Assembly: GCA_973895155.1 (NCBI GenBank)
Contig: OZ316891.1
Location: 12,026,771 to 12,090,770, forward strand
From: Marsupella aquatica
Taxonomy: Eukaryota > Plantae > Marchantiophyta
Direction: 5' to 3'
DNA: 64,000 nt
Shown here: positions 15,209-64,000 of the stretch, piece after piece
Position numbering within the stretch: position 1 is the first letter of the stretch
Layout: every line of letters begins with the position of its first letter
The notes under the pieces: model-generated
Told to the model about the DNA's origin: nothing
The model's input: the letters and a program-made list of their open reading frames with translations, nothing else
Databases searched by the model: none
Translations under genes and position numbers: made by a program

Positions 15209-16984
15209 AGTTTTGAAAAGAAAGAGTATTTACAATGTGCATTGGGAGTTTTGAAGTCACTATCCTTGTTCATTGATTTCAATTTGTGGTGCTCAATCTG
15301 CCATAGCCCACACAAGTTGGTCTCAAATCCCTGTAAACCCTGGATAATCACACATTTAACAAACCAATCGAAATGAATCACATCCATCCATCCATCCATT
15401 AGTGTACTTGTGAGGGGATGTGCTCTTATCAAGACATGCAACACCTAGTTTAGTGCACGCCAGATCTCTCTAAGTTTACAGTACTAATGTTTACCTAGTT
15501 TAGCCACGCCCTACATTTTTGAAAAAATCACCGTGTCTCGTAAAATCCTCGGTTACCGTACCGTCCTGGTCACCTGGACATGAGTACCTGAGTCTGCCGT
15601 CTCAGACGACGACAACACATCTGTAGAGACGCTCAGAGGCATTCGTTCTGACCGGTCATCTGAATAATGGAGGGCCGAGATTGCAAGAACTCAAGAACGC
15701 TTTCTTCGGAGTTCAGTGGGCCCAAGAATTTGTTTACGCGCGGGACTTCTCCTCGTGCAGTCTTCACTCTTCGGTTAGTCTTTGGTGAGTATTGAGTCTT
15801 CGCTTCACTGCTCTTGGAAATCTCGTCAGTTTGACATGAATTGCTTTTCTTTTCTTTGCTCGTCTCTGCGCTCGTGTGGAGATGACCTCTTTGCCGTTGT
15901 TTCGAGTATGTTTTCGTAAGAAGGCGAGGAGGGGTGCATGCTTCCTTGGACATCACTCGAACTTCTCCTTTAAATGATTTCATTGTTATGTGATGGAAAT
16001 CGCGCTTTCTGCTTTCTCTCGCGTTTCTGTTTCATGTTTCTGAGTCGAAGGTTAGAAGGCAGGCGGAATGCTGAGTGTCTTCAATGAGATGAGGCGACGA
16101 AGCTGCTCGATTACCAGCGGCTGCGATTTTGGGGCAGGGCATTAAAAATACGACCGGTTTGCGCTTGGCATTGTTCACACAATCGGCCTAAATGAGTCTT
16201 GATCGCCGACGCCGTTACAGTACAGTACTATAGAATTCTTGCTCTGGTCATGATCTCGAATGCCGGTTTTGAAGAGAAGTGTTCAAGACTCTTGTGGATT
16301 CATCATTTGACTGTTGACAGTATCTCAACACTCATCATGCGCGCTTGCGAGCGACACCCGGATGCCGAGTTAATCAAAATCGTCTTGAAATGAGTAGATC
16401 ACAACTGATAACGCTTGTTGTCGAATCACTCCAGGACATGCGACTGGCATTTCCGTCCCGGAATGAGATTTGTCCAAATGTCTACACGGTTCTCACAGGT
16501 CATATCCCGCCGCGTCTTGTCCATCTCAAGCGTTTGTTTTGCGTCTATATAGGCAATCGATCTTAGATTGTACACATCGCAGACGCTGTCCACCGTGAGT
16601 TGATAATTGCAACGGCGTCGCCCTGTGTCCCGTCGTCCTCCGCGGCTCCTGCTTTTTCTACAACTATTCATATTTATTTCGAATGCATCCTCCTTAGTGA
16701 ATCCAAAGCTATTACGGCCCGAGTCTTTCTCCATCGTTCCTTCGCTTAGCCAGATATTGATTCAGATCTCTCGATGCTTGTTGCAGCGACATCTCGGGCT
16801 TTTCCCTGCAATTCTCTCATGCCTACACGTAGCTCGATAGTAAGTTGAAGTCATCCAATTAATTAATGTGCATGTTGTTCTTTTCCACTCGCATCCCTTC
16901 TCCAGCTTTTCATAATTTCTCCAATCCACACCTTGTGTAGGAGTTCACTCCCTTGAAACTTGAAATTCTACTGTAAGTGAAAAC

Positions 16985-18235
16985 ATGAGCGTCATTACAG
17001 ACGCGCCAGAGCAAAATCTTCCTCACGTCCATATTTCTGCTGTTCCTACGAGTGTCCCCGGACCTGGTGAACGGAATTATTTGGACTTGGTGCCCATGCA
17101 TTCGGATTCGGTACCGTTGCTTGCGGATGGTGGGGGACTTGTATCAAAGATCTCGCCTGTTGACGTTGAGGAGGCTATCTCCGGTGTGACTGACGTACAA
17201 CGTCCGTTCTCTTTGGCCGATCATCACGATGGGGAGCGCAAACATGGGCCTTCTGACGCACCGCTTTTAGTGAGGTGTCCCAGAGGAGGTTTGCTGAGGT
17301 TAGGATTCGCATCTTGTGATTTGGCTGGTGGCTCTTGGCAACTGTTACCATTTTCTGTTCTTGTGCCGCGACCACCAGCCGATTTCGCCGGTACCTTCGA
17401 TAGAATTTACAGCGGAGGCGGTCTGGTGCTGATGGAGAAGTTCGCGAAACAGCAGTACCTCCTCGTCGTCAGCAATCCGGCGAGCAACTCACAGCGCCAG
17501 TTGCCGCCAATGATGGAATTCTCCAAACCAGAAATTCTCGGAATTTTCGTCGATAATGCGACGGCGAGTTACAAAATTCCCGTCGTTCAACGCAAGTACA
17601 ATGAAAAGGAGATGGATTTGGTCCTACTGCAGGAGTACGATTCCATCTCGAACTCTTGGGAATTCGCTGGACAATGGAGGAATAGATTTCAAGTGGAGCC
17701 AGTTGGAGCTGTGTACGTGAATGAAGCTCTGTTCTTTCTGACTTACGATAGGCAGACGCATGACGAGGGAAGACAGCAACCTGTTCATCACATCTACTAT
17801 CTCAACGATTATGTGTGGGAGAGGCTGGAGTTACCGTTGGGGCTGGGCTTCCCTGCCATCTTTGAATACAGAGGTAGGCTGATGCTCGCAGGTAGCCTGC
17901 ACTGTGGCGACTTGGACAACGGGGACGGCTCCTCCGCTGAGCAATCGGTGTTCATCTGGGAGCACGAATGGTCGCTCATGAGGTGGAAGGAAGTGTGCAA
18001 CATGCCAGGTCCGTGGGTTGACGAGCTCTACAAATGCGCTCCTGAGGAGGGCAGATGTACGCTGGAAGTCACAGCGGCCGGCAATTTCGTGTGTGTTGCG
18101 AGCTCCAATGGGAAGGTAACTAAATGCGATATAACCAAAAATGAATGGGCCTGGTTATCGAAATGCGACCTTCCGAAGTACGCGGATGGTGACAGCATGT
18201 TGCTCCTTGAACGGAGGCCCGATATCCCCGTATAG
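16985..18235 (+). CDS. F-box-associated/kelch-like beta-propeller protein (416 aa, intronless), no recognisable F-box
   Basis: Motifs GGGLVL...LVVSNPASNSQRQLPPM, YDSISNSW, AVYVNEALFFL, PAIFEYRGRLMLAG, VFIWE...WKEVCNMP, CDITKNEWAWL, typical of the plant F-box/kelch-like family C-terminal region. Confidence 0.8.
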   Translation: MSVITDAPEQNLPHVHISAVPTSVPGPGERNYLDLVPMHSDSVPLLADGGGLVSKISPVDVEEAISGVTDVQRPFSLADHHDGERKHGPSDAPLLVRCPRGGLLRLGFASCDLAGGSWQLLPFSVLVPRPPADFAGTFDRIYSGGGLVLMEKFAKQQYLLVVSNPASNSQRQLPPMMEFSKPEILGIFVDNATASYKIPVVQRKYNEKEMDLVLLQEYDSISNSWEFAGQWRNRFQVEPVGAVYVNEALFFLTYDRQTHDEGRQQPVHHIYYLNDYVWERLELPLGLGFPAIFEYRGRLMLAGSLHCGDLDNGDGSSAEQSVFIWEHEWSLMRWKEVCNMPGPWVDELYKCAPEEGRCTLEVTAAGNFVCVASSNGKVTKCDITKNEWAWLSKCDLPKYADGDSMLLLERRPDIPV

Positions 18236-21058: not shown

Positions 21059-24000
21059 CTAGGTATTTGGCCACGTAGCGGTCCCGTTCGGCCATGTTGT
21101 ACCAAGCCACTGCCCGTCGTTCACGAAGTTCAAGCCCAAGTACGGTAGCACGTCGGTGTCGGTGAGGAGCTTAGCCCACGGCGCTCGATGTGAGAGATTC
21201 GCTCCAGGCCCAGTCAATTGGTATTGGCCGAAAAACGTCGTGCTACAAAATTCTCAGACAACGAAAACTGTCAGCAGATTCAATATCGAGAGAATTGAAA
21301 GTTCAAGCATAATAATTGTACATAGCTAGAAGGCCGGGTGACGAGCTCTCGTTGGAGCACGCCATCAGTTACATAGGCCAGCCTGCCCGACATGATGATA
21401 CAACATGTCGAATTGTCGCCCGTGATTCACGACATTCAGAAGTTCTCTGAACCTCAGAAGAGCGGTGGAGGCAATGATTTAAGTACTATATCGTCCTGGG
21501 GAACACATGTTATAAATTGTCCTGGGGAACACATGTTATAAATTGTCCTGGGGAACACGTATTATAAGCTCTGACAATACTTGAAGTTAGCTCATCATTT
21601 CGGCACCAATCCACAGATAGGCTGTTCAATTAATTCATTCTGGTATTCGTTTCAATTACTGGGTATGTAAGTCGTTGATGGTGCTTTATCTGCCGTTTGT
21701 GAGCTGCTCCCGAAGTTTTCTCTAGCAAATTTACTTTTAACTCTCGTTCCTGCTCGATATATCAGTTCGAAGGGAAACTGTGGACGAACAATGCTGTAGC
21801 TGGTGGTGGGTTCAGTGCAAATATACGTTTTCTAATAATGTACTGCATGCATGGTTGAGAATCCTAAATCTTGAATGAAGGGAAACGAACGAGTTCAGTA
21901 CTTGCGAAGCTTTTGGAAAGTCAGAGGCTTCAGCACCTCAACAACTATGAAGGACAGCTCGGGAAGTCGGGAATGTTATCCCGAGTTGTCCTCACAAAAA
22001 TCCCAGGAATGAGGACAGCGGTCCTTTGAGTGCGGGAGTGATTGTTTTGATTTCTTCCAAACATTAGAGAGAAATAAGTCGCTTCATCAAAAAGCTCTGG
22101 CAGAGAAATAAACGAAGCCCATAAGAGCTTTCCTCCGTCCATTTTTGGGAGAGAGTAGAGTGACCCTTCAAATGTTATCGTGAATAAAGAACAACGAGGG
22201 TTCGCCCAAACGTTTAGCAACACTCAGGATGGAACCCTGGTCTCGGTGTCTGTAATTAATGAGATCAAGCAATAACTGGAGTTTGAGCCGTCACTAGCGT
22301 CAGTGGTTCCAATAACAGCTCGTTTATGGCGACGATCATCAACATTTCCAGTCAAGCAACGATCGAAGACGGAGGATATTGGTGAGTAAGGCACCTTTGT
22401 CTTCGGGGATCGCCAAAGTCGCTCCATCCTTCAGCAGAGATGATGTCATCCAAGTATGTACGCGCGAACACTATGCGGGCGTAGGGTGACCATGCGCGTC
22501 CAAGATAGAGCGTCCCCGAACCCGTCACAGAACACCGGTCGAACGAAAAGCCAGTGTCGTCCTCCGGAGACAACCTCTGATGCGCAGCTATTGCCCCGAA
22601 TGATGTCGCGATTGAATGCAGATGGCATCCCTGAAGAGATTGTGGACAAGAAGAATTCAGACAAGAAGATCAATCCAGACACGAACAGGTAAACAGGGTT
22701 GTGCGAACTATTTAGTAAACACATTAGAGGGAAGGCAGATGATAACGACTTCCCAGTCAGTTTTACACCCTGTACATATCCATTTTTGAAAGTGGCTCAT
22801 TTTTGTTTGAGCTATCGTTTTGTAGGTGGCGACTTGTGGATTTGTAATTTAGAGCTGGCGCATAAACAGCTAATGATCCCTTTCGTTGTTCTCTGCAGTG
22901 ATATTAATTTCATACTTAGAATAATGCTCACATTCTTGACGAAATCTTCGCACAAGCCATTCAACGAATATATATAAAATCGATCGAAGCGCAGCCACGT
23001 ACCTCGAACAGCGAGCGACCATTCCCGAAAATGAAGTCAATTGAGCCTTCAATGTAGCAGTTCATATAGTAGTGGCGGCCAGCGTAGTCATAGAGAGTGT
23101 CCTGAGCTCCAAGGAAACTGCAGTGATAAAAGGCGGCTCTGTCTCCATTCATCAGAAACGCTACTGCTTGGGCTCCAACAGCACCCGGTTCTGGTGGCGG
23201 CGCGGAATTCTACAAGTTATCATCAAGAACGCTGATTGAGAGTCATTGAGGTGTTTTGCAGGTTTACTTTGATCGATCGGCTATAGAATGATAAAACGGC
23301 CCGGGTATTAATCTTACACATGTCTTCAACAGAGCACAATTGTTGACTTCATTGACAGAAGGCAACTGACCTCATTCCAAGGCAGACGAAGACGGCGAAA
23401 TAGTATTAATTATCATGACAGAGCAGAAGTACGAGTTCGAGCTTGCGGGCAACACTTGTACCAACGACGTCACGAACTGAGTCAAAATCCGAGAACCGAC
23501 CTGAAACACCATGTGCTGGGCGACGAAGCCGTCCGAAAGTATGGTCACGGAAGCGCTCTTCATTGTTCCGTACAGGGCCGACGAGGCGTTAAATTTACTT
23601 GTCGAGAATAGCACCTCGTATCTAGTCTCGTCAGATTCGTCATTGATTGTGCTGGCTGTAGAATTCCAGCTGACGACCGTCTCACCGCTCTCACCTCCAC
23701 CTCCATGAAAGGTTATGAACGGCTTGTTGTAGGGAACTAGGACCTTTTCCCTGCGTGCAGCCGTACAAAACTCATTCCGTAAGCGACATTCATCCGAACT
23801 ATCCGTAATGAATAAAACTCGATCGTATAGGTAGGCCAAACCAGTTCACAAACATTGACTGAGGACCCTCGACGATGTCAAGGCTGCTACATTCAAGCTG
23901 GACAGATGGAGGCTATCAATTTGTTCTGAAGCTAGCAGTAAAAATCACCAACTTCAAAGAATTTTTTCTGAGTTGGAAATCTATGCCAATCCAAGATCCT

Positions 24001-25501
24001 TAGCGCGTAATCTATGCCAATACATGTAACTTCAGAACTCAGACATGTAAGAGACTACATTCAACTCAAAAGTAAAAGCGCTAGCTCGTCGATCAGAATG
24101 AAAATCTTATAATTAAAGTATCCTTTCAAATATTTAGGAAGCGAAGCAATCTAAAGATCGTCTTGGAGTTCTACGCAAAGCAGCGCTCCTCCAGGATTCC
24201 TAATTACTGGCAGTCTAAAGGCCCGAAGCTGAGTAATTTCAGTATTACGTACCCCTCCTTTTGCTTGAGGTATAAATGACAGGGAACCACCGCAATGTAT
24301 ACCAAGTGAGGCTATTTCTATACGAAACCTCTGCTTTAATTTCTTACAAAGTACGTGGTGGAAAGTCTGCGGGAAACTTCTACATAATCATCGTCAGAAG
24401 TGTTCAGACATGTACATCTAATGCTGAAATTCACCTGTAAGTGCCAGCATTGATCCGAATGACGACGCGCTGCGTATTATATTCGGGAACGCTGTCAATA
24501 GCCTTTTGAAGGGAAGAGAAATCTGCATTCTCACCCTGAGAGACGGTAATTGTAATCAGCGGACCTCTTTCCATGGGCGGCGCTCTCCAGGTATGACCGT
24601 GGCTCGCGGTGCTGACATTTTCACCGACAATATCAACGGGAATGAGCTCACTACCTTCGAGGAGTTGGTGCGATTTCTCGTGCCCTGTATCATGTTCGCT
24701 CCCGAAAGATAGTCGTAGAAGTTTTCTTCCGAACAGTCCATTCCGAGAATAGTCATTCTCCTGGCCCAGTCTTCGCGATGCGGAGTGCACTGTCCCACTG
24801 CCAGCAGACGAGTTGCCGAAGTTGTTTCTCGACACAGAGTGGCGCGTAGATGAAAATTGCACAGAACCGTTTCGAGCTGTCGAGCCTAAAAGGCCAATCT
24901 CTTGCTTCGACAAGCTGGATATACCTTTAGGCAAAGATGAAGGGAGAGAATTACGACGAAAGGGACTGGAGTGGTTGGAGGAACTACGAACCAGGGATCG
25001 CGACAGAATCTGCTTTGCATCCGGAGTCCGCTGCCTCTGCGATCTTAGCCGATTGGTGCTTGACATTAAGAGCATGGATGTAGCGTCAGACTTGAGATTA
25101 TGATCGTCGTTAATATAGCTCGCAGTGAGAGCTGCGGATCTACGAACTACTCGAGAATCCGAGAGATTTGTACTTTGAGAACTGGCGTTTTCAGGTAGAC
25201 TGTTTTGTTTCGGCTGTCCATTTACAGACCTCACAGGGAAGACGAGCTCCTTTCGTGACCTCCTTGATAATCCATGTGGATCATGAACCACAATGGAGCA
25301 TCCTACTTGATGACCTAACCGACAATGAGCGGTGATCATCTTATTGGCCCTAATATTTTCTCCAGATGTTCCTAACTCTCGAATTGCATGAAGGGGAACC
25401 TGAATGCAGTCTGTGACAATGGCCAAGCGAGTTAATAGCAGTAACTCCAAAAGATGCGGAATTATGTGAGGTCCAGAATGTTTCCTCATTTGATTCCGCA
25501 T
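21059..25501 (-). CDS. Pectin methylesterase (pectinesterase, CE8); exons 25501-24435, 23750-23501, 23209-23003, 22630-22395, 21242-21059
   Basis: Spliced protein carries [49 protein letters not shown] and GPGAN motifs. Intron phases are consistent and there is an N-terminal hydrophobic segment. Confidence 0.92.
21493..21567. repeat. 26-bp tandem repeat x~3 in the last PME intron
   Basis: GTCCTGGGGAACACATGTTATAAATT repeated. Confidence 0.9.
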
Positions 25502-25786
25502 CGTAGCTACTGCGCGAATTGGCGAGCAAACAATGGACGCCTTGCCGGACGCAAAAGTAGTGAGTGGGAGTGATACCACTCTCTCATCTAGCTAGAACGA
25601 GAGAACCGTTGGGAAAATGATGTTTTCTATATAAGGACACAGAACGTCAAATGTTGTGTAGATTCAAATCCCGTTTCATAGACGACCTTCAGAAGAGGAC
25701 GACCACTGCGTACACGGAGCCAGCGAAAGCTCTAGCCAGCTGATCGAGAATATCAAACAGCTTTTCCGGGTTTCTGACCACTTCAT

Positions 25787-29430: not shown

Positions 29431-31358
29431 CTACTGGTCTTCTAGAAAGACAGCCACGGGTTTCGATCGAGGAATTTTCGGTAGGGGAGTCTTGCCTGTG
29501 AGAATGTTTAGAACATCCCTCATGGTGGGTCTGGCTGCAGGATCCGGGTGACAACACAGCAACCCCACCTTGAGAGCCAGTTTCATTTCTTCCTCCTCGG
29601 CGACGCTTTTGAAGGCCAATTTTGGATCCATCGCATCGAGGAGTTTCTCGTCCTTGTGAAGGTCCCAAACCCAGTCCAAGAGAATGCAGTTGGACGTCAA
29701 CGTCCTCCGAGCACACGACACTTCGAGCACAACCACCCCAAATGCGTATACATCGGTCTTGTCCGTGGCTTTTCCAGTGAGACTGAACTCGGGAGCAAGA
29801 TACCCGATTGTGCCCGCTACCATCGTGGTTCTTGGTGTTTGGCTATGCGCTGATAGACGCGCAAGCCCGAAGTCGCCTAGGCGTCCATTGAAGTGAGAAT
29901 CGAGCATAATGTTGCTTGTCTTAATATCGCGGTGTACAACACGCTGCTCCCACTCCTCGTGTAAGTAAACCAGGGCGGTAGCCACTCCGCAAAAGATGTT
30001 ATAGCGATGCTTCCATGATAAGGGAGACACTGGTGTCCCATCGTCATCACCATGATCGTGGGCAAAGATTAGATCGTCTACGTCCCCATTAGGCATATAC
30101 TCGTACACTAAGATGAGCTCATCTATCTCGTCGCACCAGCCTAGTAGTTGGACGAGGTTGCGATGGCGAAGCTGGGAGATGATGTTCACCTCTGCTATGA
30201 ACTCTCGAGCTCCCTGCCGGGCGTACTGCGATAGTCTTTTCACTGCCACGGGGGCCTGAGGCGAGTCTCGCAAGTAGCCTTTGTATACTGTGCCAAATCC
30301 GCCTTCACCAACGATTAATGAGGGGTTGAAATTATCGGTCGCCAGTTTGAGTTCATTGTAAGAGAATCTCTTCGGTCCCCAGGGCCACTCAATATCGCAA
30401 GCCTCGACGTCCTTGCTGTGCGACGAGTGAGACCGAGAGCGAGAATCCGATGTGTAGGAGAGAACCAACCCTATCCCTTGTCGACCGCTTGATTTCCTTA
30501 GCCTTTGCCAGTAGTTTTTTCTCGTCATGACTGCGAGTACTATCAAGGCTGCGAGCACGGCTAGTGCCACCATAACTCCTATCACTGTGCCCAGAATCCA
30601 GGCCACGTTGTGGTTATGCGTCTTCTTTTCCGTCTTCCCTGTGATAGGACCAACAGAACCAGCGAGGGGTGAGACATCGACGGGAATAGTAACAGCGAAC
30701 CCCATTCCCAATCGACACTCCGTTGGATTTATGAATCCAAACTGGTCTGAAGAGTATTGGGCCGACGCGCTACTGAGATTGTAACCGATCATGGCAAAAT
30801 TTAATCTGCCTGGAGGAATGCCATCGGATGCATCACACTTTTCTGCGGCCTCCAAGGACACTTGCACGACAGGATATGTCCCAAAGACTGCACGTCCGAT
30901 GCACAAGATCGTCAGGATGCAAAATTCTGCAAGTCCGCCTCACTCTCAAACTTTGAAACTCTACAAATTTGTTTAATGTTCTGAATGAGCAGATTCTTTC
31001 ATCACGGGTCCCAGATACTACGGAATATTGTTAAAGTCATTGAAAGCTCTTCCACAACGGGAGATAGGGTATCAAATGGAAAGCTTAGCCTTCACCGAAT
31101 GAAGCGCTGGCTTTGCTTCCTACTCTAAAAGAAAACGGAATGATACTTACCAAGGCAGTCGGTAGTTGTTAGAGTCAGGTTGGATATCCACCCTTGATAG
31201 TTAAATCCAGATGTGTAGTTATCTGGTGAGCTTTGAGAATATTTCCACCCATAAGAACCTCCAACTACAATTATTGTTCCTCCATCGACAGATCGCAATA
31301 TGATTAACCAGAGTGCAGCCGCCAGCAAAGACTGAATCCGAATTCCAATGGATGCCAT
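29431..31358 (-). CDS. Receptor-like kinase: signal peptide + phytocyanin/cupredoxin-like ectodomain + TM + L-type-lectin-RK-like Ser/Thr kinase; exons 31358-31151, 30887-29431
   Basis: Phase-1 GT-AG splice gives ...VGGSYGW...NYQGW...DCLVFGTYPVVQVS...KCD...ECRLGMGFAVTI. TM segment VAWILGTVIGVMVALAVLAALIVLAV. Kinase motifs GPKRFSY, GEGGFG, VAVK, LHEEWEQRVVHRDIK, DFG, GTIGYLAPE. Confidence 0.9.
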
Positions 31359-32692
31359 CTGTATTTCCTACCTAATAGTTCTGCTCATCCTTGTACACAT
31401 CCAAGCTTCGGGGAGTCTTGAGTCGACTGGCGCTTCAGCATCGGAAACAGAGCTACCATCCAAATTTGACCAATTCCTTGATAAGAATCAACGTCCCAAA
31501 GAGTTGAGCTCGATCGAGAAAGAAGCATCAGAGTTGAGTGCAGAGTGTAAGTTCTCATCGCTTCTGTAGAAAATCTTCAACCTGTCGTCTCCCAGTGCCT
31601 GCCAATCCATACGAGGCCACTTGTCCCAACTGTCAATTCAACTCGTACTACCAATCCTGCGCCGGAGGATGATCTCCTCTGAATCCTTCCCTCAGACTCA
31701 CTTATCCATCCTCATCCACCTTCAACAACAGCAGGAACATTCTCGTCGCCCATAATTACATCAAAATCATAGAACTCTCATCTGCAGCTTGACAATCGTT
31801 CACAAATGAGCGAGCATGCAAGTAGTTTCTTTTCATGAAAAAGATGCCTGGCTGCACGCACATCTGCACATCCTCACTGGCTGAGTGCTTCCTCTGGCTG
31901 GTACCTCAACAAAACCTAAATCACCCCCGCCCCCTTTCTCCCGGCCCATAGCTGAACGATGCGTTTAAGAGTTTCGAGGCTGCAGATACAAGCAGACCTG
32001 TAACCGTAAAGCTGCCCACCTCATCCATCCAAATGACTTGAACAATTTCGAGCATTAGTGGACTCCAGTCCTCGTTCGTCTACAGGTACCAGAGCTTCCC
32101 GGCAAGTCTTCAGGATGGAACGGCTGGAGGACCAAGCAACTCAATTAGAAACTAGTCAGTGTAGACCCATATTCTCCCGTATCCAGTGAACGCAGACGCA
32201 GCATCTCTGCTACGTACCTCCTGAGTGGAGTCATTCTTGATTCTCAGGTGTTGATTTGACCCGCAGGACACGAACCTCTTGCACTATATTGGTTCTAGAC
32301 GAAACGTCTCTTGTCTTCACGAGTCAAGACAAGACACACACAGACTGGCTCGATATTGGAAATTGCGGAGCAAGCACGGGAAAGGAATCTGCTATTGCAA
32401 AAGGTCTACGACAGCACATGCGACTGCGCGAGAGTGGGTGGGCTGATGGGTGGGCTGATGTGTCTGTAAAGATTGGCGGATTCTTCGTCAAATGAGCGAC
32501 TGGTCAAACCATAGTCAAAGGAATCAAAAGATTGAACATGGCACTTTATGATCGGTAGTGTAAACGAAATACAGCTGAAGAAATTAGAAAATACACAAGT
32601 CAAAAACCCAATACCACGAGAAATGGAGACTCAAATCATAGTAAACATCGAGTCGTGAGTTCCAGTGATTGCTGCCAGCCCTCTATTGAATA

Positions 32693-32814
32693 TTACTCTA
32701 TGAATTCCCCGAGAGTCATCATGGACAGAAGTATAGGATAGAGAAGGTCCCGAATGTTACTCTATGAATTCCCCGAGAGTCATCATGGACATAAGTATAG
32801 GATGGAGGAGGTCT
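32693..32814. repeat. 64-bp tandem duplication
   Basis: TTACTCTATGAATTCCCCGAGAGTCATCATGGACA.AAGTATAGGAT x2. Confidence 0.9.
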
Positions 32815-52155: not shown

Positions 52156-54013
52156 ATGATGGCAGTCCTCCAAGGGCCGGCGGCAACGCAGTCTCTGCTG
52201 GGCGTTTTGGTGCTCTTTTGGTCCAGTAGGGCAGTTCTGGTAAATGCTGTCGCTGCTTGGGCGGTGACAGATTGGGCGGATGCTCATGCGACTTTCTATG
52301 GTGGACAAGATGCTTCTGGGACAATGGGTATGCAGTGAACTTTCACTATTCCCCTCCCAACCCACTTTCTGTACGCGTTGCTGGAGCAAATGCTCTGAAT
52401 CTCGTCGTCGATGCCGTTTCTGATCTCTTTACCAAACTTTTTTGGAGCAATTAAAATGTAGCTGGGAGTTAGCTGACTCTACTGATGATCCTGTTCCCCG
52501 TGCTGTAATTTATACGTTGCAGGTGGTGCATGTGGATATGGGAACCTCTACAACGTAGGCTACGGAGTCAACACAGCTGCATTGAGTAATGCTCTGTTTC
52601 ACAACGGGTTGAGCTGTGGAGCCTGCTTCCAGCTTGAATGCAACCTTGACCAGACTCGATGGTGCTACCCTGGAGGGAAAACCATTACGATCACGGCAAC
52701 TAACCAATGTCCTCAGGGTTCAGAGGGGGGGTGGTGCGACTGGCCCAAATATCACTTTGATTTGGCATTCCCCATGTTCGCGACACTTGCCCAACCAGTT
52801 GGTGGCGTAATTCCGGTCAGATACAAAAGGTGAGCTCATCCCAGGCCCACCGCAATGAACTGAATTGACTTCCAGCACTTTGTATCGCCGGTCTCTCGTT
52901 TCCCTTCCATGTTGAAACAGACAGAAATCCGATTGAGCGATTGTATCTGACTCATGCTCTGCTGCTATCCTTCAACTTCTTGGCTCCGCTTTGAAAATAA
53001 AATTTCCTCTATGTCACGGCCGTTCTGGTTTCGTTCGTTGGTTGGGAACTTAAAATGTATGGATGGAAATCTTTGTCGTTCTTTCGCCGAACATGGTATT
53101 CCTCTCCATCCGCCATTTATCCTCGTGGACCTTCGACTGCTTTTAGTGGATTTCCAGAAAGTGAAGAATCTATTTACGCATCTGGGAATTGGGTGGGGCC
53201 GTTTATTGTAAACGAGAATAACGTAGCAATGGCAAATATTTCTTGCCGTGAAATGACAGGATAGAGCCCGCCTGAGCCCGTGCTAAAATGAATACATCAC
53301 CTTTGGTAGCAGAGTACTTTGGTCCCAATTCAGTTCTCTCCGATTTGCTGATTCACACGGGATTCCACGTGCCCCATGTTACTCGGGTTAGAGCATAAGT
53401 AGGGAAGATCATCTTAAGGGCTACAGCTTGAAATTTACCTCCAGAGGAAGCAGAGAACTATAAGAACTATGTAAACCTTGACACAGAAAGCTGACCGACA
53501 AAACTAAATCTGTGATATCCAATTGCGTCAGTCATAAGTCCGACTATATTCATGGACCTACTCCGAAGCGCCACCTCTAAAGTATTAGGACCAAGAAAGT
53601 GGGGTACCTGATTAAATTCTTGGCTCAGATGTTTTTGAGCTGGGGTGGATTGTCATTAGGCTTCTTATTCTGACTGGGCAATCGGTTAATTTTCATGTCG
53701 CAGAGTTTCATGCTCGAGACAGGGAGGAGTGCGCTTCAGGATTCTAGGCAATCCATGGTTCAATTACGTCATGGTGTTCAATGTAGCAGGGGGTGGAGAC
53801 ATTTCGGCCCTCGCCATCAGAGGAGATAACACTGACTGGATTTCAATGTCCCAAAACTGGGGTCAGTTCTGGTCTGCCGGTGCCTACGTTGCTGGTCAGA
53901 GCCTGTCATTCAGAGCATCATTGGGCAGTGGACAAACTCTGGAATTTTGGAATGTCGCTGAAAAGAACTGGTGGTTCGGGCAAACTTTCGAGTCGGATTA
54001 CAACTTCAGTTGA
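52156..54013 (+). CDS. EXPA: Alpha-expansin (EXPA); exons 52156-52327, 52523-52829, 53704-54013
   Basis: [90 protein letters not shown]; canonical two-intron layout. Confidence 0.97.
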
Positions 54014-55765: not shown

Positions 55766-55790
55766 TATATATTGGTATCAGCCTATTCAT

Positions 55791-56142
55791 TAAAAGTGTA
55801 TTATTATTTTATTTATGTACATTTGGGCAGTGAAAAGTGTACTTTTGGGTTTGGAAAAGTGTACATTTGGCCAATGAAAAGTGTATATTTGGGGATAGAA
55901 AAGTTTACAATTGGCCTAAAGAGTGTACATTTGGGCAATGAAAAGTGTAAATTTGAACATCAAAATAGATACATTTGGCTTTAAAAGTGTACATTTGAGT
56001 ACATTTGGCCTAGAAAGTGTACATTTGAGTGCAAAATGCATATATTTGGCTTAACAAGTGTACATTTAAGTGCATTTGGTCTAGAAAGTGTAACTTTTAG
56101 TGCAATAAAGTGTACATTTGGCCTAAAAAGTGTACATTTGCC
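55791..56142. repeat. Subterminal ~22-bp tandem repeats with TGTACA core
   Basis: AAAAGTGTACATTTGG variants repeated more than 10 times. Confidence 0.9.
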
Positions 56143-56391
56143 TACCAACTCTTATTATAATCATTTAAAAGAAAGGAATGAATAGAAAAACATTTTTAAT
56201 TATGTAGAAAAAGCAAACATTCATATTTATAATGATCAAAAGTTTAGAAAATGAGGAGATAGTATCACATTAAAACTATTAGAATAGTAAATAACTAGTA
56301 CATAAATTACTATGTTTGAATGAGTGACTATCTTAGTTACATAAAAACTAGTAACTATCTATTTAATTATTATAGCTTCTAACAACTAAGT

Positions 56392-58284
56392 CTACTTGTC
56401 CATCCTTTGAAGATAATTTTGGACAGTTTGTAGAACATTTCGAGGGATCTTCAAACCTCTGCCCGCCATGTTTTCTTCTTTCATTCCAGATTTAAAACCA
56501 TACATTGCAGAATTCGCATACTGCCAATGTTGAGTATTCTCACCAAACCCTGGATCTCGTTCCCATGTCTTAGTGGACATGAAACAATTTAGATACCGCG
56601 CACTCTCAGTCACATCAAGTTTACTAGAGTGTTTAGGCCTCCACCATTCAACTGGGAACATTGGAGCGTACTGTCGAGGCAGAGAAGGGTTTGTTGAAGA
56701 TGTAGTTGGGACTTCATGCTTTGGGTCCACCAAACCCAAAGCTCTCACCAACCAGAAATGACCTCCACCATTTTTATTCTCCCAGTCATCCTCGGGTCGA
56801 AGAAATACAAAGTTTCCTTCACAAATATCTTGTAAAGGAATCCATCGTCCTTGTTCTCTCTCAGCTCGAGATCCAACAAATGGTGCTGCTTGATCTTCCA
56901 TCTCTTCCAAGACCTCATTTTGAAGAGCCGTCATCTCTGCATTCTCCTCATCTTCACTTGGAGGACCACTTTGTTCCGGTTGGTTGACCTTGTAACCAGT
57001 GCCGTGGTTAGTCTTAGGCCAAAATCTGTTTTCCAAGGGAAATTGAGTACTTCCCTCCCCTTCTAGTGCGAGCCCATTTGTCAACAACTCCACAATTCTC
57101 TCCCAATATTTCACAAGAGGAAATCTTTCCTTATATGCTATAGATGTCTCATCAGTGCAACTCCTTCTCAAAAAATCAAGGTACTTGTTAAGAAATGGGA
57201 TAATCTCTTCAGATTTTTTGTGTATCTCTCCAATGGATTTAGCTAAGGGCTCTCCACTTGGTAAAAGAAGAGAATTTGTTGTCAGATCTGTTGCCCAAAT
57301 GCACCTTCCACCAACTGGAGCCCAAGCTTGCTTTACATGGGACTTATACTGAAATATTGGTACATTATCTCTCATAGAGAAAAGAAATGATACAGGTTTT
57401 GAGTGACCTTGAATATCTTTCACCTTGAAAGTTTGAAGATATTCTTTGTAAGATGCAACTTCTTGTATCAATCTGGGAACTGGATGAATGCTCTCGCATT
57501 CCCATACCTCTGCCATAAGAGCAAGGAGGGTTGCAACTTCTTTGTGCTGAACTTGATATGATACCTTTGAAAAGAGTGCATCAACATCTTCATGCGTATG
57601 ACCAACCATTAGAAAAGACATTTGAACAGTTTCAAATACTCCTCTACTCACAAGCTCGCTACAAAATGCCATGACAGTCTGGTTTTTGTTGTCCTTTGCT
57701 GAATTATCCATCTGCAATGTTAGGTGCCTTGGCAAGGGCTTGAACGATGGACTGCATTGCTCTCCTTGCATGTCTTCTCCATCATCCTCATCTTGCTGGT
57801 TTGGGACGGTCTCAGTCCGACTCTCAGCTCCATCTTCAGAACCAATATACCTATTCACCGGTATATTCTTTGGTTCCAAATAACCCGTCAAAAATGCTTC
57901 AAAGTCAAGCAGGGCTTGAAAGAAAGGTCTGTGAGGTTCCCAATGAAGGCCATCCAACATGTCACCTGTCTTGTCTCCATTGTACTCTTCAAGGTCTCGA
58001 AGACACTTAGCCAAGGATGTCACCGTGAAATCGGCATCTTCTGGCCAAAGGCCAGTGACACTACAGTGTGCATAAACTCCTGGATCCCTCCCGTGGGTCA
58101 ACATCCCTGTGAGAGCAATAGGTAGCGGCATTCCATGACCCGAAAGAGATTTAGGAGTACTAACCATTTTTGGAATCCATGTCTTTGCTTGATCCATCTT
58201 GTCATGAATAATGCAAAGATATTCTCCTGGGTGTTGTTTGGCAATCACTCGATGAGCGTAGTAAACATATCTACTTGATTCCTC
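56392..58284 (-). CDS. DUF7869-type DDE/D transposase catalytic region (no ATG start; N-terminus probably lost or frameshifted)
   Basis: QEESSRYVYYAHR..AKQHPGEYLCIIHDKMDQAKTWIP, LTGMLTHG, LTLQMDNSAKDNKNQ, GVFETVQMSFLMVGHTHEDVDALFS. Confidence 0.8.
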   Translation of the reverse strand, partial: EESSRYVYYAHRVIAKQHPGEYLCIIHDKMDQAKTWIPKMVSTPKSLSGHGMPLPIALTGMLTHGRDPGVYAHCSVTGLWPEDADFTVTSLAKCLRDLEEYNGDKTGDMLDGLHWEPHRPFFQALLDFEAFLTGYLEPKNIPVNRYIGSEDGAESRTETVPNQQDEDDGEDMQGEQCSPSFKPLPRHLTLQMDNSAKDNKNQTVMAFCSELVSRGVFETVQMSFLMVGHTHEDVDALFSKVSYQVQHKEVATLLALMAEVWECESIHPVPRLIQEVASYKEYLQTFKVKDIQGHSKPVSFLFSMRDNVPIFQYKSHVKQAWAPVGGRCIWATDLTTNSLLLPSGEPLAKSIGEIHKKSEEIIPFLNKYLDFLRRSCTDETSIAYKERFPLVKYWERIVELLTNGLALEGEGSTQFPLENRFWPKTNHGTGYKVNQPEQSGPPSEDEENAEMTALQNEVLEEMEDQAAPFVGSRAEREQGRWIPLQDICEGNFVFLRPEDDWENKNGGGHFWLVRALGLVDPKHEVPTTSSTNPSLPRQYAPMFPVEWWRPKHSSKLDVTESARYLNCFMSTKTWERDPGFGENTQHWQYANSAMYGFKSGMKEENMAGRGLKIPRNVLQTVQNYLQRMDK

Positions 58285-59399
58285 TTGTTAAAATTGTAGG
58301 GCCTTGAACGCAGTACTCCTCTATCACTTACATCCGCATTGAGTTCATCCCTATCCATTGAGTCCATCCTTTCAGAACCTTCCACCAAAATGTCTGACAA
58401 AAATTTTCCATTTGCAACTAGTTTTGTTGAATCAATCCGCCATCGAATCAAACTCACTACTCCCTTGTGGATGTTGGGAAAGTATTGTGCTGCCACGACA
58501 TCTTTCACAGCAATCCCAACATGGTCATCACCAAGAATTTCATCATCAACTGCCGCCGTCACTTGAGGGACAGTGATCGTTCCCGTGGCAACCATTTTGG
58601 TTCGATCCAAACCAGTGTAGAGTTCAACCAACTCTGACATCCAGTTTGCCCGATGAAAATAGTCACACTTAGTGTCTGTGGTGTTTGCCGAACAAGACTG
58701 TGAAACAAAATCCACCTTGTCCTTTTGCTTCTTAGAGGAAGATTTGTTGCTCCCATCGATGTCAACATTCCATACTTTATTGTGGACGTCAGCCACATCC
58801 CATAGAACCCAGGAGCCCTTTGCCTCTTCAATTGTTGCAGCTCCACCATGTGCGTAAGGTAAAGTCTTACTACCATGAATCACATCTGTGATTTTTACAC
58901 TAACCCGAGACTCACCGAGTAATATGTTATGACATCTCTCCATTGGATCAGTCTTGAAAACAACTCCAAAGGCCACACAATGGCCAGAGATAAACATTTC
59001 AACCTCATCACCTGGCCTTAGGGTGGTCGAAGCATCCTCCTGTACATTTGCAGAATTATGGATGTTGTTATCTTTTCGAGTCGAACAACTACCAATACTG
59101 ATGCGTTTTTGAGTAATCTTATCCGCAGATCGATATGCACATGACATATCCCAAATGACACATGAGTCAATGGCATCATGAAGATTTTCCGCCCTAGGCA
59201 TTGGAAAAGGGAGCTTCCTGGTCTCACCAAAGGCCTTCTCAATGAGAACCCCAATTCGATTCTCTCCCAGCACAATATTTTGAAGACTCTCTTGCGGATC
59301 TGTCTTTTGAACTGTCCCATTTCCAACGTCGTAACCATCCATTGTCAAGGTCACATCATCGCCCCTAGAAAACCTTTGAGACATCCTTTTCCTATTATC
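58245..59399 (-). CDS. Exon/ORF with three tandem Tnp1/En-Spm-like (Transposase_23/DUF8039-like) domains
   Basis: Three copies of V(A/G)xGxV...(DP)...ILG(E/D)xxVxVxI...(LP)...W(D/R). Splice acceptor tttttttcagtgtgcag at ~59400. Confidence 0.7.
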   Translation of the reverse strand, partial: DNRKRMSQRFSRGDDVTLTMDGYDVGNGTVQKTDPQESLQNIVLGENRIGVLIEKAFGETRKLPFPMPRAENLHDAIDSCVIWDMSCAYRSADKITQKRISIGSCSTRKDNNIHNSANVQEDASTTLRPGDEVEMFISGHCVAFGVVFKTDPMERCHNILLGESRVSVKITDVIHGSKTLPYAHGGAATIEEAKGSWVLWDVADVHNKVWNVDIDGSNKSSSKKQKDKVDFVSQSCSANTTDTKCDYFHRANWMSELVELYTGLDRTKMVATGTITVPQVTAAVDDEILGDDHVGIAVKDVVAAQYFPNIHKGVVSLIRWRIDSTKLVANGKFLSDILVEGSERMDSMDRDELNADVSDRGVLRSRPYNFNKRNQVDMFTTLIE

Positions 59400-59454
59400 C
59401 TGCACACTGAAAAAAATGGATTAAAAGCAAAGTCATGCAAATTTTGATTCAGAC

Positions 59455-60400
59455 TGCGATCCTCAAAGTCTGGATTTGGACTACGATCCTTCAATTCCGG
59501 ATTTGGACCGGGACCATCCAAGTCCGGATTTGGACTACGATCCTCTGATTCTGGATTTGGACTAGGACCATCCGAGTCCGGATTTTGACCGGGACCATCC
59601 AAGTGCGGATTTGGACTGCAATCCTCCGAGTCTAGATTTGGACTACGATCCTCCGATTATGGATTTGGACTGGGATCATCCGAGTCTGGATTTGGACTGG
59701 AATCCTTCGAGTCTGGATTTGGAGTACGATCCTCCGATTCTGGATTTGGACTGGGACCATCCGAGTCTGGATTTGGACTGGGACCATCCCAGTCCAAAGT
59801 TGGACTAGGACCATCCCAATCCAAACTTGGACTCGGACCATCCCAATCCAAACTAGGACTTGGACCATCCAAGTCCAAACTTGGACTCGGACCATCCCAA
59901 TCCAAAGTTGGACTCGCACTATCCTAATCCAAACTTGGACTCGGACCATCCCAATCCAAACTAGGACTTGGACCATCCAAGTCCAAACTTGGACTCGGAC
60001 CATCCCAATCCAAAGTTGGACTCGGACCATCCCAATCCAAAGTTGGACTCGCACCATCCTAATCCAAACTTGGACTCGGACCATCCCAATCCAAACTAGA
60101 ACTTGGACCATCCAAGTCCAAACTTGGACTCGGACCATCCCAATCCAAAGTTGGACTTGAACCATCCTAATCCAAACTTGGACTCGGACCATCCCAATCC
60201 AAACTAGGACTTGGACCATCCAAGTCCAAACTTGGACTCGGACCATCCCAATCCAAACTAGGACTTGGACCATCCAAGTTTAAACTTGGACTCGGACCAT
60301 CCCAATCCAAAGTTGGACTCGGATGATCCCAATCCAAAGTTGGACTCGGATGATCCTAGTCCACATCCGAATCCAAACTTGGACTAGGACCATCCTAGAC
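59455..60400. repeat. 27-bp palindromic minisatellite, ~35 units, two subtypes
   Basis: GGATTTGGACTGGGACCATCCGAGTCT subtype to ~59790, then CCAAA(C/G)TTGGACTCGGACCATCCCAAT subtype. Confidence 0.95.
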
Positions 60401-60966
60401 CAACCCATAATGTAACGGGAGATAAACTTCAAACATTTTAAGCTAAGAAAATTCCAAATTTAGGAAGACTCCGTATTTTACGGATCTCCCTATATGGTGT
60501 AGCCTAAAGTTTGCGTGGTCTTAAGGTAGACCCTAATGTCTACATACAGTTTCATGAAATAATGAAACCTAGCCTTATATTTGAATGCATTAACCTTATA
60601 CTCACCTTAGTATTAAGATCTGGTAGAATATGAATATCACATCCAAGGGGGATACATTGTTGTCTGTAGATTGGTAAAAACTTTCCCAGAACCCTGAATA
60701 CAAGCTATATGCCACTAAATCTTGGGAGTAAAAAACAAACTGAACCCTAAACCACACATGTCTGTAAAAGATAAACTGAGAGGACCCCAAAAGTCAAGAA
60801 GCTGGCTAAGCTGACCCATTGAAGGTAAGTGGCTCAATACATAACACTTTAAGAGAAACTCCGGATTACATGGAGCTTAGATTTGGGAAACTAGAACAAG
60901 AATGAGCTCCGAAGTGGGCGTCTCCCGAAATATACCCTTTGCTCGAGTCGGCTCAAACGGAAATCG

Positions 60967-61025
60967 CGTGAAGATAAGGGTTGAGTACCCCTTCAACTTA
61001 GCTTGCGGCACACCTTATCTTCACG
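60967..61025. other. Perfect 13-bp inverted repeat enclosing a smaller hairpin
   Basis: CGTGAAGATAAGG (60967-60979) and CCTTATCTTCACG (61013-61025); inner GTTGA...TCAAC. Confidence 0.8.
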
Positions 61026-61433
61026 AGCTTAATTGTGCGGGGACTACCGTGCAAGGCTGTTAGGTAGGCAGGACATCAAGGAAGGAGGCCCGTATGTAGG
61101 GTGCGGGCAACGGGTCGTACGCAGGAGCAGGCCGTACGCACTATCAGGCCGTACGTAGGAGAAGGAGGCAACCGGCCGTACGCAGGCCGGGGTGAGGCAG
61201 GAGGGGGTAAAGGGACGGAGAGGTCCAGCCAGGACCTCATTCTCATTCTCACTCTTTCGCTCCTCACTCTGCTCACGCTCTCCACTCTCCGCCTCCGCTC
61301 TCTGCTCTTTGCCTCCACTCGCTCGCTCTCCTCGCTCTTTGCTCTCCGCTCTCTCTCTGCCTCCCCGCCTCCGCCTGCTTCCGCCTCCACCTCCATTCTT
61401 TTTCATTGCCCTAAATCGGACGCCTGCTAAGAA

Positions 61434-61458
61434 GCCACGTGTCACTCTGCCACGTGTC
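61434..61458. promoter_or_regulatory. Two G-box/ABRE-like motifs
   Basis: GCCACGTGTC at 61434-61443 and 61449-61458. Confidence 0.4.
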
Positions 61459-61464
61459 AGAAAG

Positions 61465-63749
61465 ATGGAAGCGAATCGCGTCCTTGTGAAGTCCTCCGTG
61501 GAAGCAACAGAGGAGTTTGACCTCTCCTCTATGAGCGACAGTGTAGAACTGGCACTTGAAGACTCCAGACAATTTCAATCAAGAATCCCTAGTAAGTATC
61601 CATCACCTATCCTCCCTAAGTCTTAGAGGACTGGGACCATCCGAGTCCAAAGTTGGACTCGGATGATCCCAATCCAAACTTGGACTCGGACCATCCCAAT
61701 CCGAACTTGGACTCAGATGATCCTAATCCAAACATGGACTCGGATGATCCCAATCCAAAGTTGGACTCGGATGATCCCAGTCCAAAGTTGGACTCGGATG
61801 ATCCCAATCCAAAGTTGGACTCGGACCATCCCAATCCGAACTTGGACTCAGATGATCCTAATTCAAACGTGGACTCGGATGATCCCAATCCAAACTTGGA
61901 CTCGGATGATCCTAATCCATCCAGGAGATTGAATCTCGATTGTAGGAGCAAGTCTAAAACCATCTCAAGTTGGACTAGGACCATCCTAATCCAACAAGAG
62001 TTATTCAAATGTTTTAAACTTAATAAGTCTAACATGGATGACGTTTTTATGATGCAGGGAGCGATCTTGTTGGTTTCAAACCCGCGATTGCACCGACCGA
62101 CTGCCGGGATGGATTCTTACTAGATGAGAGATCCCCAGGCTTCCGATGGGGGCTTGAGTTCTCAAGAACCCCGCTTAATAATGAAGTGCCATCAAGCACG
62201 ATTGAACCTGTTTTGACCTTAAAGTGCAGAGCAAATGATAGCCTGACTTTGGTTTGCGGACCTGTGGTCTCTGTTGGCATTGGAGGGACAGGGATGAATT
62301 TGGTCATTCTGGAGATGCACGATAGGTCATGCTGGGTTATAAGTTAACCTTATGTCAAAGGCATACTCCTCAGAATTCAATGTCGAATGGCACGCAAGTG
62401 GTGAATTGAGCGTTTTGTCAATGGGATTTTTTCCAAAGACATATGACACAAAGAAGTTGGTCATCGGGGTAACTGGTATGCTTCCAGTCGACATTATGTA
62501 TGGGTTTCAATATTTGAAACTCAACATGATGAAGCACCAAGGCAATTTCTCTTTTGCAACTACTTGGACGTTAAGCAATTTACTTGAGAAAGTTGGATTG
62601 TTATCATTGGAGTCAGAGGAGCCTGGTGTTTTAATTGATAAGGATGTTGCATTTGATCCCAACTTTGATTTAGTCAAAGCAAAGCAATGGATAGAATCTT
62701 TGTCAAAGACGAGAAACCTTCCAACGGTGAATACAAACCCTGTGCCCGAGAAGGCGCCAGAGAAAGCTCCAGAACCTACAACAGAGACCGCGGGAACTAC
62801 AGCAGCAACCTCTCAAAGAGCAGTGGGAAAACAAAAACAAAGCCAAAGGAAACCTCCGGTTGAAAAGAGACTTCCAGTTGAGAAGCCGGTTGAGAAGCCG
62901 AGTACGAGAAGCCGAGTTCAGAAGCCAGTTGAGAAGCCGAGTACGAGAAGCCAAGTTGAGAAGCCAGTTGAGAAGAAACGTCCGGTTGAGAAGCCAAGTG
63001 CAAGTGAAAAGAGGCCAAGACAAAAGAAGAAACAGAAAATTGACAGTGCCATCATGGATGACACTACAGAAAACCTGACAGTGCATTCACAAGATATGGA
63101 CGAGCAGTTGGACGCTCCTGAGGAGAAGAAGGTCTTAGAAGGTAATGAGGGACTGCAACAAATGGAGCAATATTATACGTTTGGGATCAATTCGATATTT
63201 TCTATTCCCGTAGAGAGTATTTTCCCTGCGTCGGCAAGACTCTGTTACAGAATGTTGAATGCAAACCATGTAAAGGAGGTGGCCAATTCCATGATAAGAA
63301 ATCCGGGGCATGAACCACACATAGCAGACTTGATTCCTTACACTACAAAACATAGAAACCTAATGCAATATGACAACACGGAATCAGATAGGAGGGACTT
63401 TGTAGCAGCCGTGAAAAAGGGGGAGGTTCAATTCCTTGCCATTAGCGGTCAACATTCGGCCAGAGCAGCCAGATGGATTCGAGAATGGGCAAACAAGGAT
63501 GCCAAGCTAACAGCATTGGCAAAAAAGCTGGAATTTCGAAAGTCAAGAATATTATCTCATCGAACACCATCGTCAATATTAGTTGAGCATTCAATGCGAT
63601 CTAATGCTATCAATAGCACGATGGTGTTTCAGTCATGCTTCAAAGATACAGTCGTTCATGCTAGGCGGCAATTTGTGGAATGTGGAAAATCTAGCCGGCC
63701 AAAACATGGGGACAACAAAACAAACGCTCAAGACAATCAAAAATTTCAG
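61465..63749 (+). CDS. ParB/sulfiredoxin-like domain protein (TE cargo); predicted exons 61465-61591 and 62058-63749, one frameshift near 62341, probably continues beyond the window
   Basis: Phase-1 splice A|GTAAGT...GCAG|GG gives an open frame to TAA at 62345. The +1 frame is open 62352-63770 with PVEKP repeats, an NLS-like KRPRQKKKQK, and FSIPVESI..YRMLNANHVKEVANSM..P..FLAISGQHSARAA. Donor CAG|GTACGA at 63749. Confidence 0.6.
61627..61995. repeat. Second 27-bp palindromic array (~11 units plus an outlier)
   Basis: TTGGACTCGGA(TGA/CCA)TCCCAATCCAAA(C/G) repeated. Confidence 0.95.
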
Positions 63750-63848
63750 GTACGAAGTGTTACTGCTTGATTGGTACAATACCGTAGACTCTCCATGTGT
63801 GATTACAATTGAGATGGTAGTCTTTGACCACAAAGCTTCAAGTTTGCT

Positions 63849-63957
63849 TTGGATTGAGATGGTCCGAGTCCAAATGGATACATTCACATTCAGTAGAATA
63901 TTTCCACTGATATCGTCTAGTTTTGTGTTGGACTGGGATGGTCCCAGTCCAAATGGA
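63849..63957. repeat. Two isolated copies of the 27-bp palindrome
   Basis: TTGGATTGAGATGGTCCGAGTCCAA (~63849) and perfect TTGGACTGGGA-TGG-TCCCAGTCCAA (63928-63952). Confidence 0.85.
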
Positions 63958-64000
63958 TTCATGCACATTCAATAGACTATTTCCACTGATATTGTCTAGT

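Follow-up and report, generated by a model that had tools for sequence, protein, structure and literature searches.

In a high-copy DNA transposon of the liverwort Marsupella aquatica we found a gene for a protein with a ParB/Srx-like domain, in which the signature GQHS takes the place of the arginine-containing GxxR motif. In related proteins the domain is followed, after an intron at a conserved position, by a helical region and a methyltransferase fold that looks catalytically eroded, and arrays of palindromes lie next to the gene within the element. The reading that we favor, and to which we give an even chance, is that the intact protein would bind specific sequences without catalysis, marking its own element and favoring its expression, a parS-like form of self-recognition or anti-silencing.

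Organization of the gene

The gene is located on the forward strand at the right-hand end of the window, i.e. the whole stretch of 64,000 nucleotides that was analyzed. Its predicted first exon (61,465–61,591) begins with the ATG at 61,465 and ends at a GT donor at 61,592, which is phase-compatible with an acceptor at 62,057. The following conserved N-terminal domain (62,058–62,720) is shared with close relatives and gave no match in Pfam. A low-complexity linker rich in lysine and proline (62,730–63,110) connects this part to the ParB/Srx-fold domain (63,111–63,749), whose structural core extends from about 63,165 to 63,635 and contains an arginine at 63,249, the GQHS motif at 63,447–63,458 and an asparagine at 63,603. 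The sequence-only reading that we followed up had based its assignment on several motifs, preceded by disordered PVEKP repeats and an NLS-like stretch. All of these were found in a single forward frame (62,343–63,770): IPVESI at 63,204, YRMLNANHVKEVANSM at 63,246, FLAISGQHSARAA at 63,432, the PVEKP repeats from 62,874 onwards in the frame of the ParB-fold domain, and the NLS-like KRPRQKKKQK at 63,009, upstream of the domain. The repeats are not conserved in the closest relatives; the basic linker itself is present in them. A GT donor at 63,750 opens the intron whose position is conserved in the family and which runs to the end of the window (63,750–64,000, forward strand). To judge from the relatives, the helical and methylase exons of the gene would lie beyond that end.

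The copy in the window, gene and element alike, looks dead: the gene is frameshifted and the transposase has probably lost an internal segment. The frameshift at about 62,340, which had escaped the sequence-only reading, amounts to roughly one extra base and leads to a stop after 138 amino acids in the spliced reading; three relatives (P0013, P0006 and P0083) align over two window frames near this position. An intron as the cause was considered and rejected, since the relatives read through this position without interruption and the sequence shows no space for one.

Fold of the ParB-like domain

The domain found in the window has no match in Pfam and none in the PDB by sequence search, and a sequence search of PHROGs returned nothing meaningful. 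Among 75 family members, Pfam DndB was matched in three (best E-value 0.031). An AF2 model of the domain, based on an alignment of 75 sequences, reached a pLDDT of 94.5 and a pTM of 0.88; an earlier model from 6 sequences (pLDDT 40) was left unused. All three structure searches rest on this one model. A Foldseek search of the PDB returned Noc (E = 2e-3), PadC, sulfiredoxin and ParB as the best rows, and by our reading the ParB/Srx superfamily accounts for 27 of the 31 rows shown, with no match at E ≤ 0.001. In the viral library BFVD the best match was a partitioning protein (E = 1.6e-4). VIA-align, run against 48,161 chains, placed PadC first (Z 7.8, rmsd 3.3, 99 aligned) and also found KorB (Z 7.7, rmsd 2.9, 93 aligned), pNOB8 ParB-N (Z 7.7), SerK (Z 7.1), SbnI (Z 6.0) and sulfiredoxin (Z 5.9); no row reached Z 8, and values below 8 can reflect a common arrangement. 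A single superfamily, ParB/Srx, fills the top 8 of the 19 rows.

When 1.84 billion representatives were searched with a profile, 113 matched at E ≤ 0.001; at least two of these matches, P0090 and P0097, appear to be spurious. Because of these relatives and the confident model we regard the domain as more than a product of chance. A ParB/Srx α/β core fold is thus supported for the modeled domain, at moderate scores, and the original assignment to this superfamily was borne out by the model and by structural matches in three libraries; in the Foldseek comparison that had been proposed as a check, superfamily members rank first. A homodimer prediction made without an alignment scored 0.00 and speaks for neither side.

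The GQHS motif and the nucleotide pocket

At the position of the GxxR arginine, the 75 aligned relatives contain serine (70), threonine (3) or leucine (2) and never arginine. GQHS is present in 69 of 94 rows. It is a signature of the family and no defect of the window copy alone. The exchange had been described beforehand as the loss of a catalytic arginine to serine. The replacement itself is real and family-wide; the term "catalytic" does not hold, since the GxxR arginine has a role in binding the nucleotide phosphate, rather than a strictly catalytic one. Other pocket positions are kept, namely Arg47 (61 of 75 sequences), His115 (75 of 75) and Asn165 (67 of 75); Arg143 and Arg185 are also conserved in the alignment of the domain. 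We take the upstream arginine, the histidine and the downstream asparagine to be the QPR, GERR and EN positions of ParB. Because Arg47, GQH and Asn165 are strongly conserved, the pocket probably still binds something, which counts against the label "non-catalytic".

In the accessible part of a survey of ParB folds (10.1101/2025.10.10.680097), an arginine-to-alanine mutant of GxxR served as the non-binding control, and ATP, CTP or GTP was bound with a preference that was not predictable. Judged by sequence, the family lacks the GxxR motif with arginine that would mark a ParB-type NTP switch.

Relatives and the methyltransferase fold

The first six relatives show 58–62% identity, and three of the six are named as Calypogeia fissa. 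Of 30 relatives looked up, 11 carried organism names: Riccia sorocarpa (8), Calypogeia fissa (2) and Diphasiastrum complanatum (1), i.e. liverworts and one lycophyte. A metagenome scan based on the alignment of close relatives gave 231 pattern matches and no locus among them.

Among the 72 relatives that reach the end of the ParB domain, 50 stop within 30 residues past it, mostly at a valine, and 14 extend by more than 60 residues. The early stops fit gene callers running into the same conserved intron. In two spliced Calypogeia models (P0002 and P0015) the domain leads on to a helical region that the Riccia proteins also have, and in the latter this region is followed by an N6_N4_Mtase domain. 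Pfam matches to this domain, all below the gathering score (E-values from 2e-4 to 0.06), came from 3 relatives out of 64 and from 4 out of 10, and a comparison of the relatives' C-terminus with M.RsrI gave E = 1e-3. A structure search of the Atlas with the same region returned N6_N4_Mtase in 10 of 10 rows (TM 0.59–0.63); the top cluster is mostly from phages and contains ParB_N in 69% of its members. The beta-class N4/N6 fold with the motif order IV ... X-I was found in the Riccia relatives.

None of the 13 relatives examined contains the motif (D/N/S)PP(Y/F/W). In 10 of the 13, motif IV reads DLTA, DLTS, DLTV, DLIA, DFAR or DFRF, so that the aspartate is kept. Motif I was seen in 11 of the 13 as FSGGV, FSGSV or FGGLK; read against the beta-class motifs, it is without the last glycine, and the next strand ends without an acidic residue. 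From these motifs the methylase fold of the relatives looks catalytically eroded. The suggestion that later exons might add an effector such as a DNA-modifying enzyme was therefore right as to the N4/N6-methyltransferase fold in relatives, and doubtful as to its catalytic competence. One member of the ParB-methylase family, P0080, carries the UniRef label "Nucleolar protein 6", which looks like a mis-annotation.

Two loci, L002 and L003, represent a distant subfamily that is 27% identical to the window domain and has the same intron. Their downstream frame weakly resembles the methylase end (hhalign E = 0.002, probability 15%), and hmmsearch gave no significant match to a methylase there. A quick tree of 85 out of 154 proteins, chosen for sufficient match length, places methylase-bearing proteins on several branches outside the clade of the window protein, whose nearest relatives (P0002 and P0015) are known through the helical middle region only. 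Because of this placement the methylase end of the window gene is something we infer; we consider it likely that the gene ends in this fold as well.

Palindromes

The 27-bp units next to the gene are imperfect palindromes of the form GGAYTNGGA-N3-TCCNARTCC, with a palindromic part of 21–25 bp. At no more than two mismatches the pattern has 42 matches, every one inside the element (0.04 expected). Array A (59,452–60,402) comprises 27 matches, and array B (61,628–61,992), which is located in the predicted intron 1 and consists of the same palindrome, comprises 12; the two flank the central region between the genes. Two further palindromes, at 63,851 and 63,930 and hence 79 bp apart, are found in the intron that follows the ParB exon, and one is within the transposase frame. 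Since the pattern was derived from the arrays, whose tandem copies cannot be counted as independent, the isolated copies carry more weight.

The loci L001 and L002 carry a different palindrome, with 4 copies in the former and 7 in the latter; these copies are found in the same intron and also upstream of the gene. L003, whose protein is 63% identical to the L001/L002 type, contains 3 palindrome copies. The cores are CTCTCG-N2-CGAGAG in L001 and L002 and CACTCG-N2-CGAGTG in L003, so that both arms have changed. The palindrome of the window is absent from the L001–L003 loci and theirs are absent from the window; the comparison covers three subfamilies, a small sample. The 79-bp spacing of the intron palindromes recurs in L001 (1823/1902) and L002 (2260/2339), a subfamily with unrelated sequence. 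As a general rule this spacing was rejected, because L003 has 45 bp. The first intron palindrome of L001 and L002 forms the center of a near-perfect 120-bp hairpin (1777–1896 and 2218–2341, respectively).

Structure of the transposon

The left end of the element (55,779–56,144) was located by a step in contig depth and by contig starts, with a probable terminus at 55,779, the exact first base being deduced. Across the bin 55,772–55,805, contig depth climbs in all four runs from about 20–160 into the hundreds or beyond. Left of 55,770 it lies in the tens, whereas values right of it run from hundreds up to tens of thousands; contigs whose flanks differ begin at 55,777–55,783. The depth stays high up to the end of the window in X1–X3, with low values in X5, which is more distant; contig depth does not equal copy number. 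Over the transposase the depth exceeds that over the ParB gene several-fold, so that some transposase-like copies may lack this gene. Tandem repeats of 22 nt, detected by a repeat search, occupy a subterminal position (55,816–56,144). They hold a short palindrome of their own with a TGTACA core and are candidate transposase sites. The depth is far higher over this segment, which suggests many non-autonomous relatives.

The reverse strand encodes the 3' part of a DD(D/E)-type transposase (56,392–58,278; Pfam DUF7869, E = 1.3e-43) with the candidate catalytic aspartate motifs IIHDKMDQ (58,212), LQMDNSAKDNKN (57,717) and GHTHEDVD (57,603). Its 5' part is missing and the frame upstream is closed. 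A probable internal-deletion junction is located at 58,269–58,278, where other copies diverge on both sides: contigs from X1 and X2 part from the window after 58,278 and continue the transposase frame, and an X2 contig matches 58,269–59,022, preceded by 237 unmatched letters. An open frame of 391 amino acids on the same strand (58,245–59,420, splice acceptor at about 59,401) could be a second reverse-strand gene or an exon. It has no Pfam match and no internal repeat by BLAST; by eye we discern three similar beta-rich units, which we presume to recall Tnp1/En-Spm-like or DUF8039 domains.

The ParB gene on the forward strand and the transposase on the reverse strand are thus arranged head-to-head inside a high-copy element. 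Judging from these orientations, the central region (60,410–61,464) would hold a divergent promoter and 5' UTRs. A Riccia gene model, P0089, fuses a ParB piece with a DUF7869 piece and so links the two in another genus. The repeat depth and the DUF7869 neighbor confirm that the gene belongs to a transposon, as had been proposed when it was called a plant TE protein. We take DUF7869 to be the Sola transposase, and a literature search for this domain returned no paper. The transposase is probably of the Sola1 type, as suggested by its motifs, the precedent in Ectocarpus and a resemblance by eye between the terminus and the TIR of an insect Sola1. The left flank ends in GTAT, i.e. in T and not in AWWT; the target duplication of Sola1 is of the 4-bp AWWT type.

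Host genes in the window include the C-terminus of an expansin (53,690–54,013, Pfam) and, recognized by eye, a lectin-type receptor kinase (29,434–30,939), a pectin methylesterase (23,375–25,591) and an F-box/kelch-like frame (16,964–18,232). The expansin neighbor, together with the named relatives, points to a seed-free land plant, likely a liverwort. A 64-bp tandem duplication (32,688–32,813) is unrelated to the motif of the element; the 2-kb bin that contains it abounds in inverted-repeat signals.

Comparison with known systems

The papers cited in this section were compared through their accessible parts. The closest precedent is Sola1-1_Ec32 from the brown alga Ectocarpus (PMC12477816), a large DNA transposon in which a ParB-like domain and an N4/N6 methyltransferase form one protein, encoded on the strand opposite the transposase and discussed as a possible new accessory class. 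The element described here appears to share this layout, with the methylase taken from the relatives. The Ectocarpus methylase is predicted to make 4mC or 6mA, whereas the land-plant family has GQHS, no DPPY in the relatives and palindrome arrays; the two were compared by description. None of the 11 organism-named proteins among the 30 relatives looked up is algal. In the giant Plavaka elements of Bostrychia (10.1101/2025.02.11.637652), PAG2/PAG3 includes a ParB-like protein with adjoining tandem inverted-repeat arrays and proposed self-binding. There, however, the fusion partner of ParB is a 2OG-oxygenase, a gene of its own encodes the methylase as a SET fusion, and the transposase is of the EnSpm/Plavaka type.

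With bacterial ParB, Noc, KorB and PadC and with sulfiredoxin the family shares the predicted fold, the motif layout and palindromic, repeated sites nearby. It differs by the absence of the GxxR arginine and of ParA, by an identity of only about 10–20% and by eukaryotic introns. ParB-linked methylases have been described in chlorophytes, chytrids and phages (PMC4738411). The phage proteins from ParB-terminase loci, to which the top Atlas row corresponds, show the same two-domain order, but the land-plant family has a long N-terminal domain, a helical insert and eroded catalytic motifs. A tblastn search with the full-length relative P0121 against phages gave one match at chance level (E = 3) and no direct donor.

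VANC of the VANDAL transposons likewise acts on the sequence of its own element. The likeness is one of function; VANDALs are Mutator-type elements of eudicots. Marchantia MpDN4MT1a/b (10.1101/2021.02.12.428880) provide a prokaryote-type N4/N6 methylase fold in a liverwort; unlike the family described here they are host genes with an intact TSPPY and demonstrated activity, and the accessible text mentions no ParB domain. The nearest Atlas clusters to the segment 63,168–63,749 are fungal, with DUF3723, a Starship cargo domain, at a feature score of 0.94–0.95. Pfam DUF3723 (PF12520) is absent from the window domain and from the 25 families listed for 75 members, and the accessible Starship literature on DUF3723 does not mention ParB. 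DUF3723 may hold a ParB-like fold, and the fungal Starship proteins may be distant ParB-fold cousins.

ParB-plus-methylase accessory genes of transposons with nearby inverted repeats are therefore already described for algae; the land-plant variant appears to be new. Among the matches listed by a literature search on land plants, the algal papers alone were relevant, and there was no report of the land-plant family, of the apparent double catalytic loss or of family-specific palindromes; most subscription journals lay outside this search.

Proposed role and alternatives

Based on these results and on the analogy with VANC we propose the following role for the self-marking protein. The intact protein would join the ParB-fold domain to the methyltransferase fold, both of them likely non-catalytic. 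It would dimerize and bind the palindrome of its element, probably via the helical part after the intron. Lacking the GxxR arginine it would not run through a CTP-clamp cycle, and lacking DPPY it would not methylate DNA. The arrays on both sides of the shared promoter region would recruit the protein and thereby keep the region active, as VANC does for VANDAL; the anti-silencing role is suggested by this analogy only.

The attribute "non-catalytic" may be wrong, because the motif IV aspartate is kept in 10 of 13 relatives. The protein could instead be an active self-modifier that binds a nucleotide non-canonically through its ParB fold and uses its methylase to place 4mC or 6mA on the element. 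The invariant histidine and the conserved Arg47, Arg143, Asn165 and Arg185 would fit such an enzyme, as would the unpredictable binding of ATP, CTP or GTP by ParB folds (10.1101/2025.10.10.680097); self-modification has been proposed for the algal elements (PMC12477816; 10.1101/2025.02.11.637652), and Marchantia has active 4mC writers (10.1101/2021.02.12.428880). We nonetheless consider it unlikely, in view of the arginine missing from all 75 rows at the very position mutated in the non-binding control, the complete lack of PPY in 13 relatives as against TSPPY in the active Marchantia enzymes, and the changes in motif I and the strand that follows. A somewhat better, though still small, chance goes to a palindrome-bound autorepressor that silences the shared promoter in the manner of KorB, or to a transposition helper that bridges DNA for the transposase. 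KorB is among the best structural matches, the arrays flank the central region, one palindrome lies in the transposase frame, and accessory proteins can contact transposases, as reported for MURA and MURB in the accessible literature; the left end, on the other hand, carries 22-nt repeats of its own and none of these palindromes. Least of all do we expect the gene to be a passenger or relic unrelated to the palindromes, which would then be incidental repeats of a satellite or MITE-like kind. Tandem arrays can grow neutrally, the copies in the window and at L003 are broken, and one palindrome of L001/L002 sits in a 120-bp hairpin. Against this speak the symmetric repeats in the same intron of three subfamilies with differences that preserve the symmetry, the same association in red algae (10.1101/2025.02.11.637652, accessible part) and the conservation of the domain across liverworts and a lycophyte.

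Significance

Sequence-specific anti-silencing by transposons is established in one plant family of elements, VANDAL. The algal ParB-methylase accessory genes are hypotheses as to function, and the family described here brings this kind of gene to the land plants, more precisely to a group in which Marchantia and Riccia serve as tractable models. With matched protein-palindrome pairs from three subfamilies, self-recognition by a transposon ParB becomes directly testable by swaps. If the loss of both catalytic sites is true, the proposal would shift from self-modification to binding or shielding. In its boldest form, which we put forward tentatively and rate as less probable than the self-marking role as such, seed-free land plants would possess a eukaryotic parS/ParB-like system: an NTP-independent ParB fold and a dead methylase would co-evolve with element-specific palindromes and shield the element from host methylation, as a second kind of sequence-specific anti-silencing factor, unrelated to VANC.
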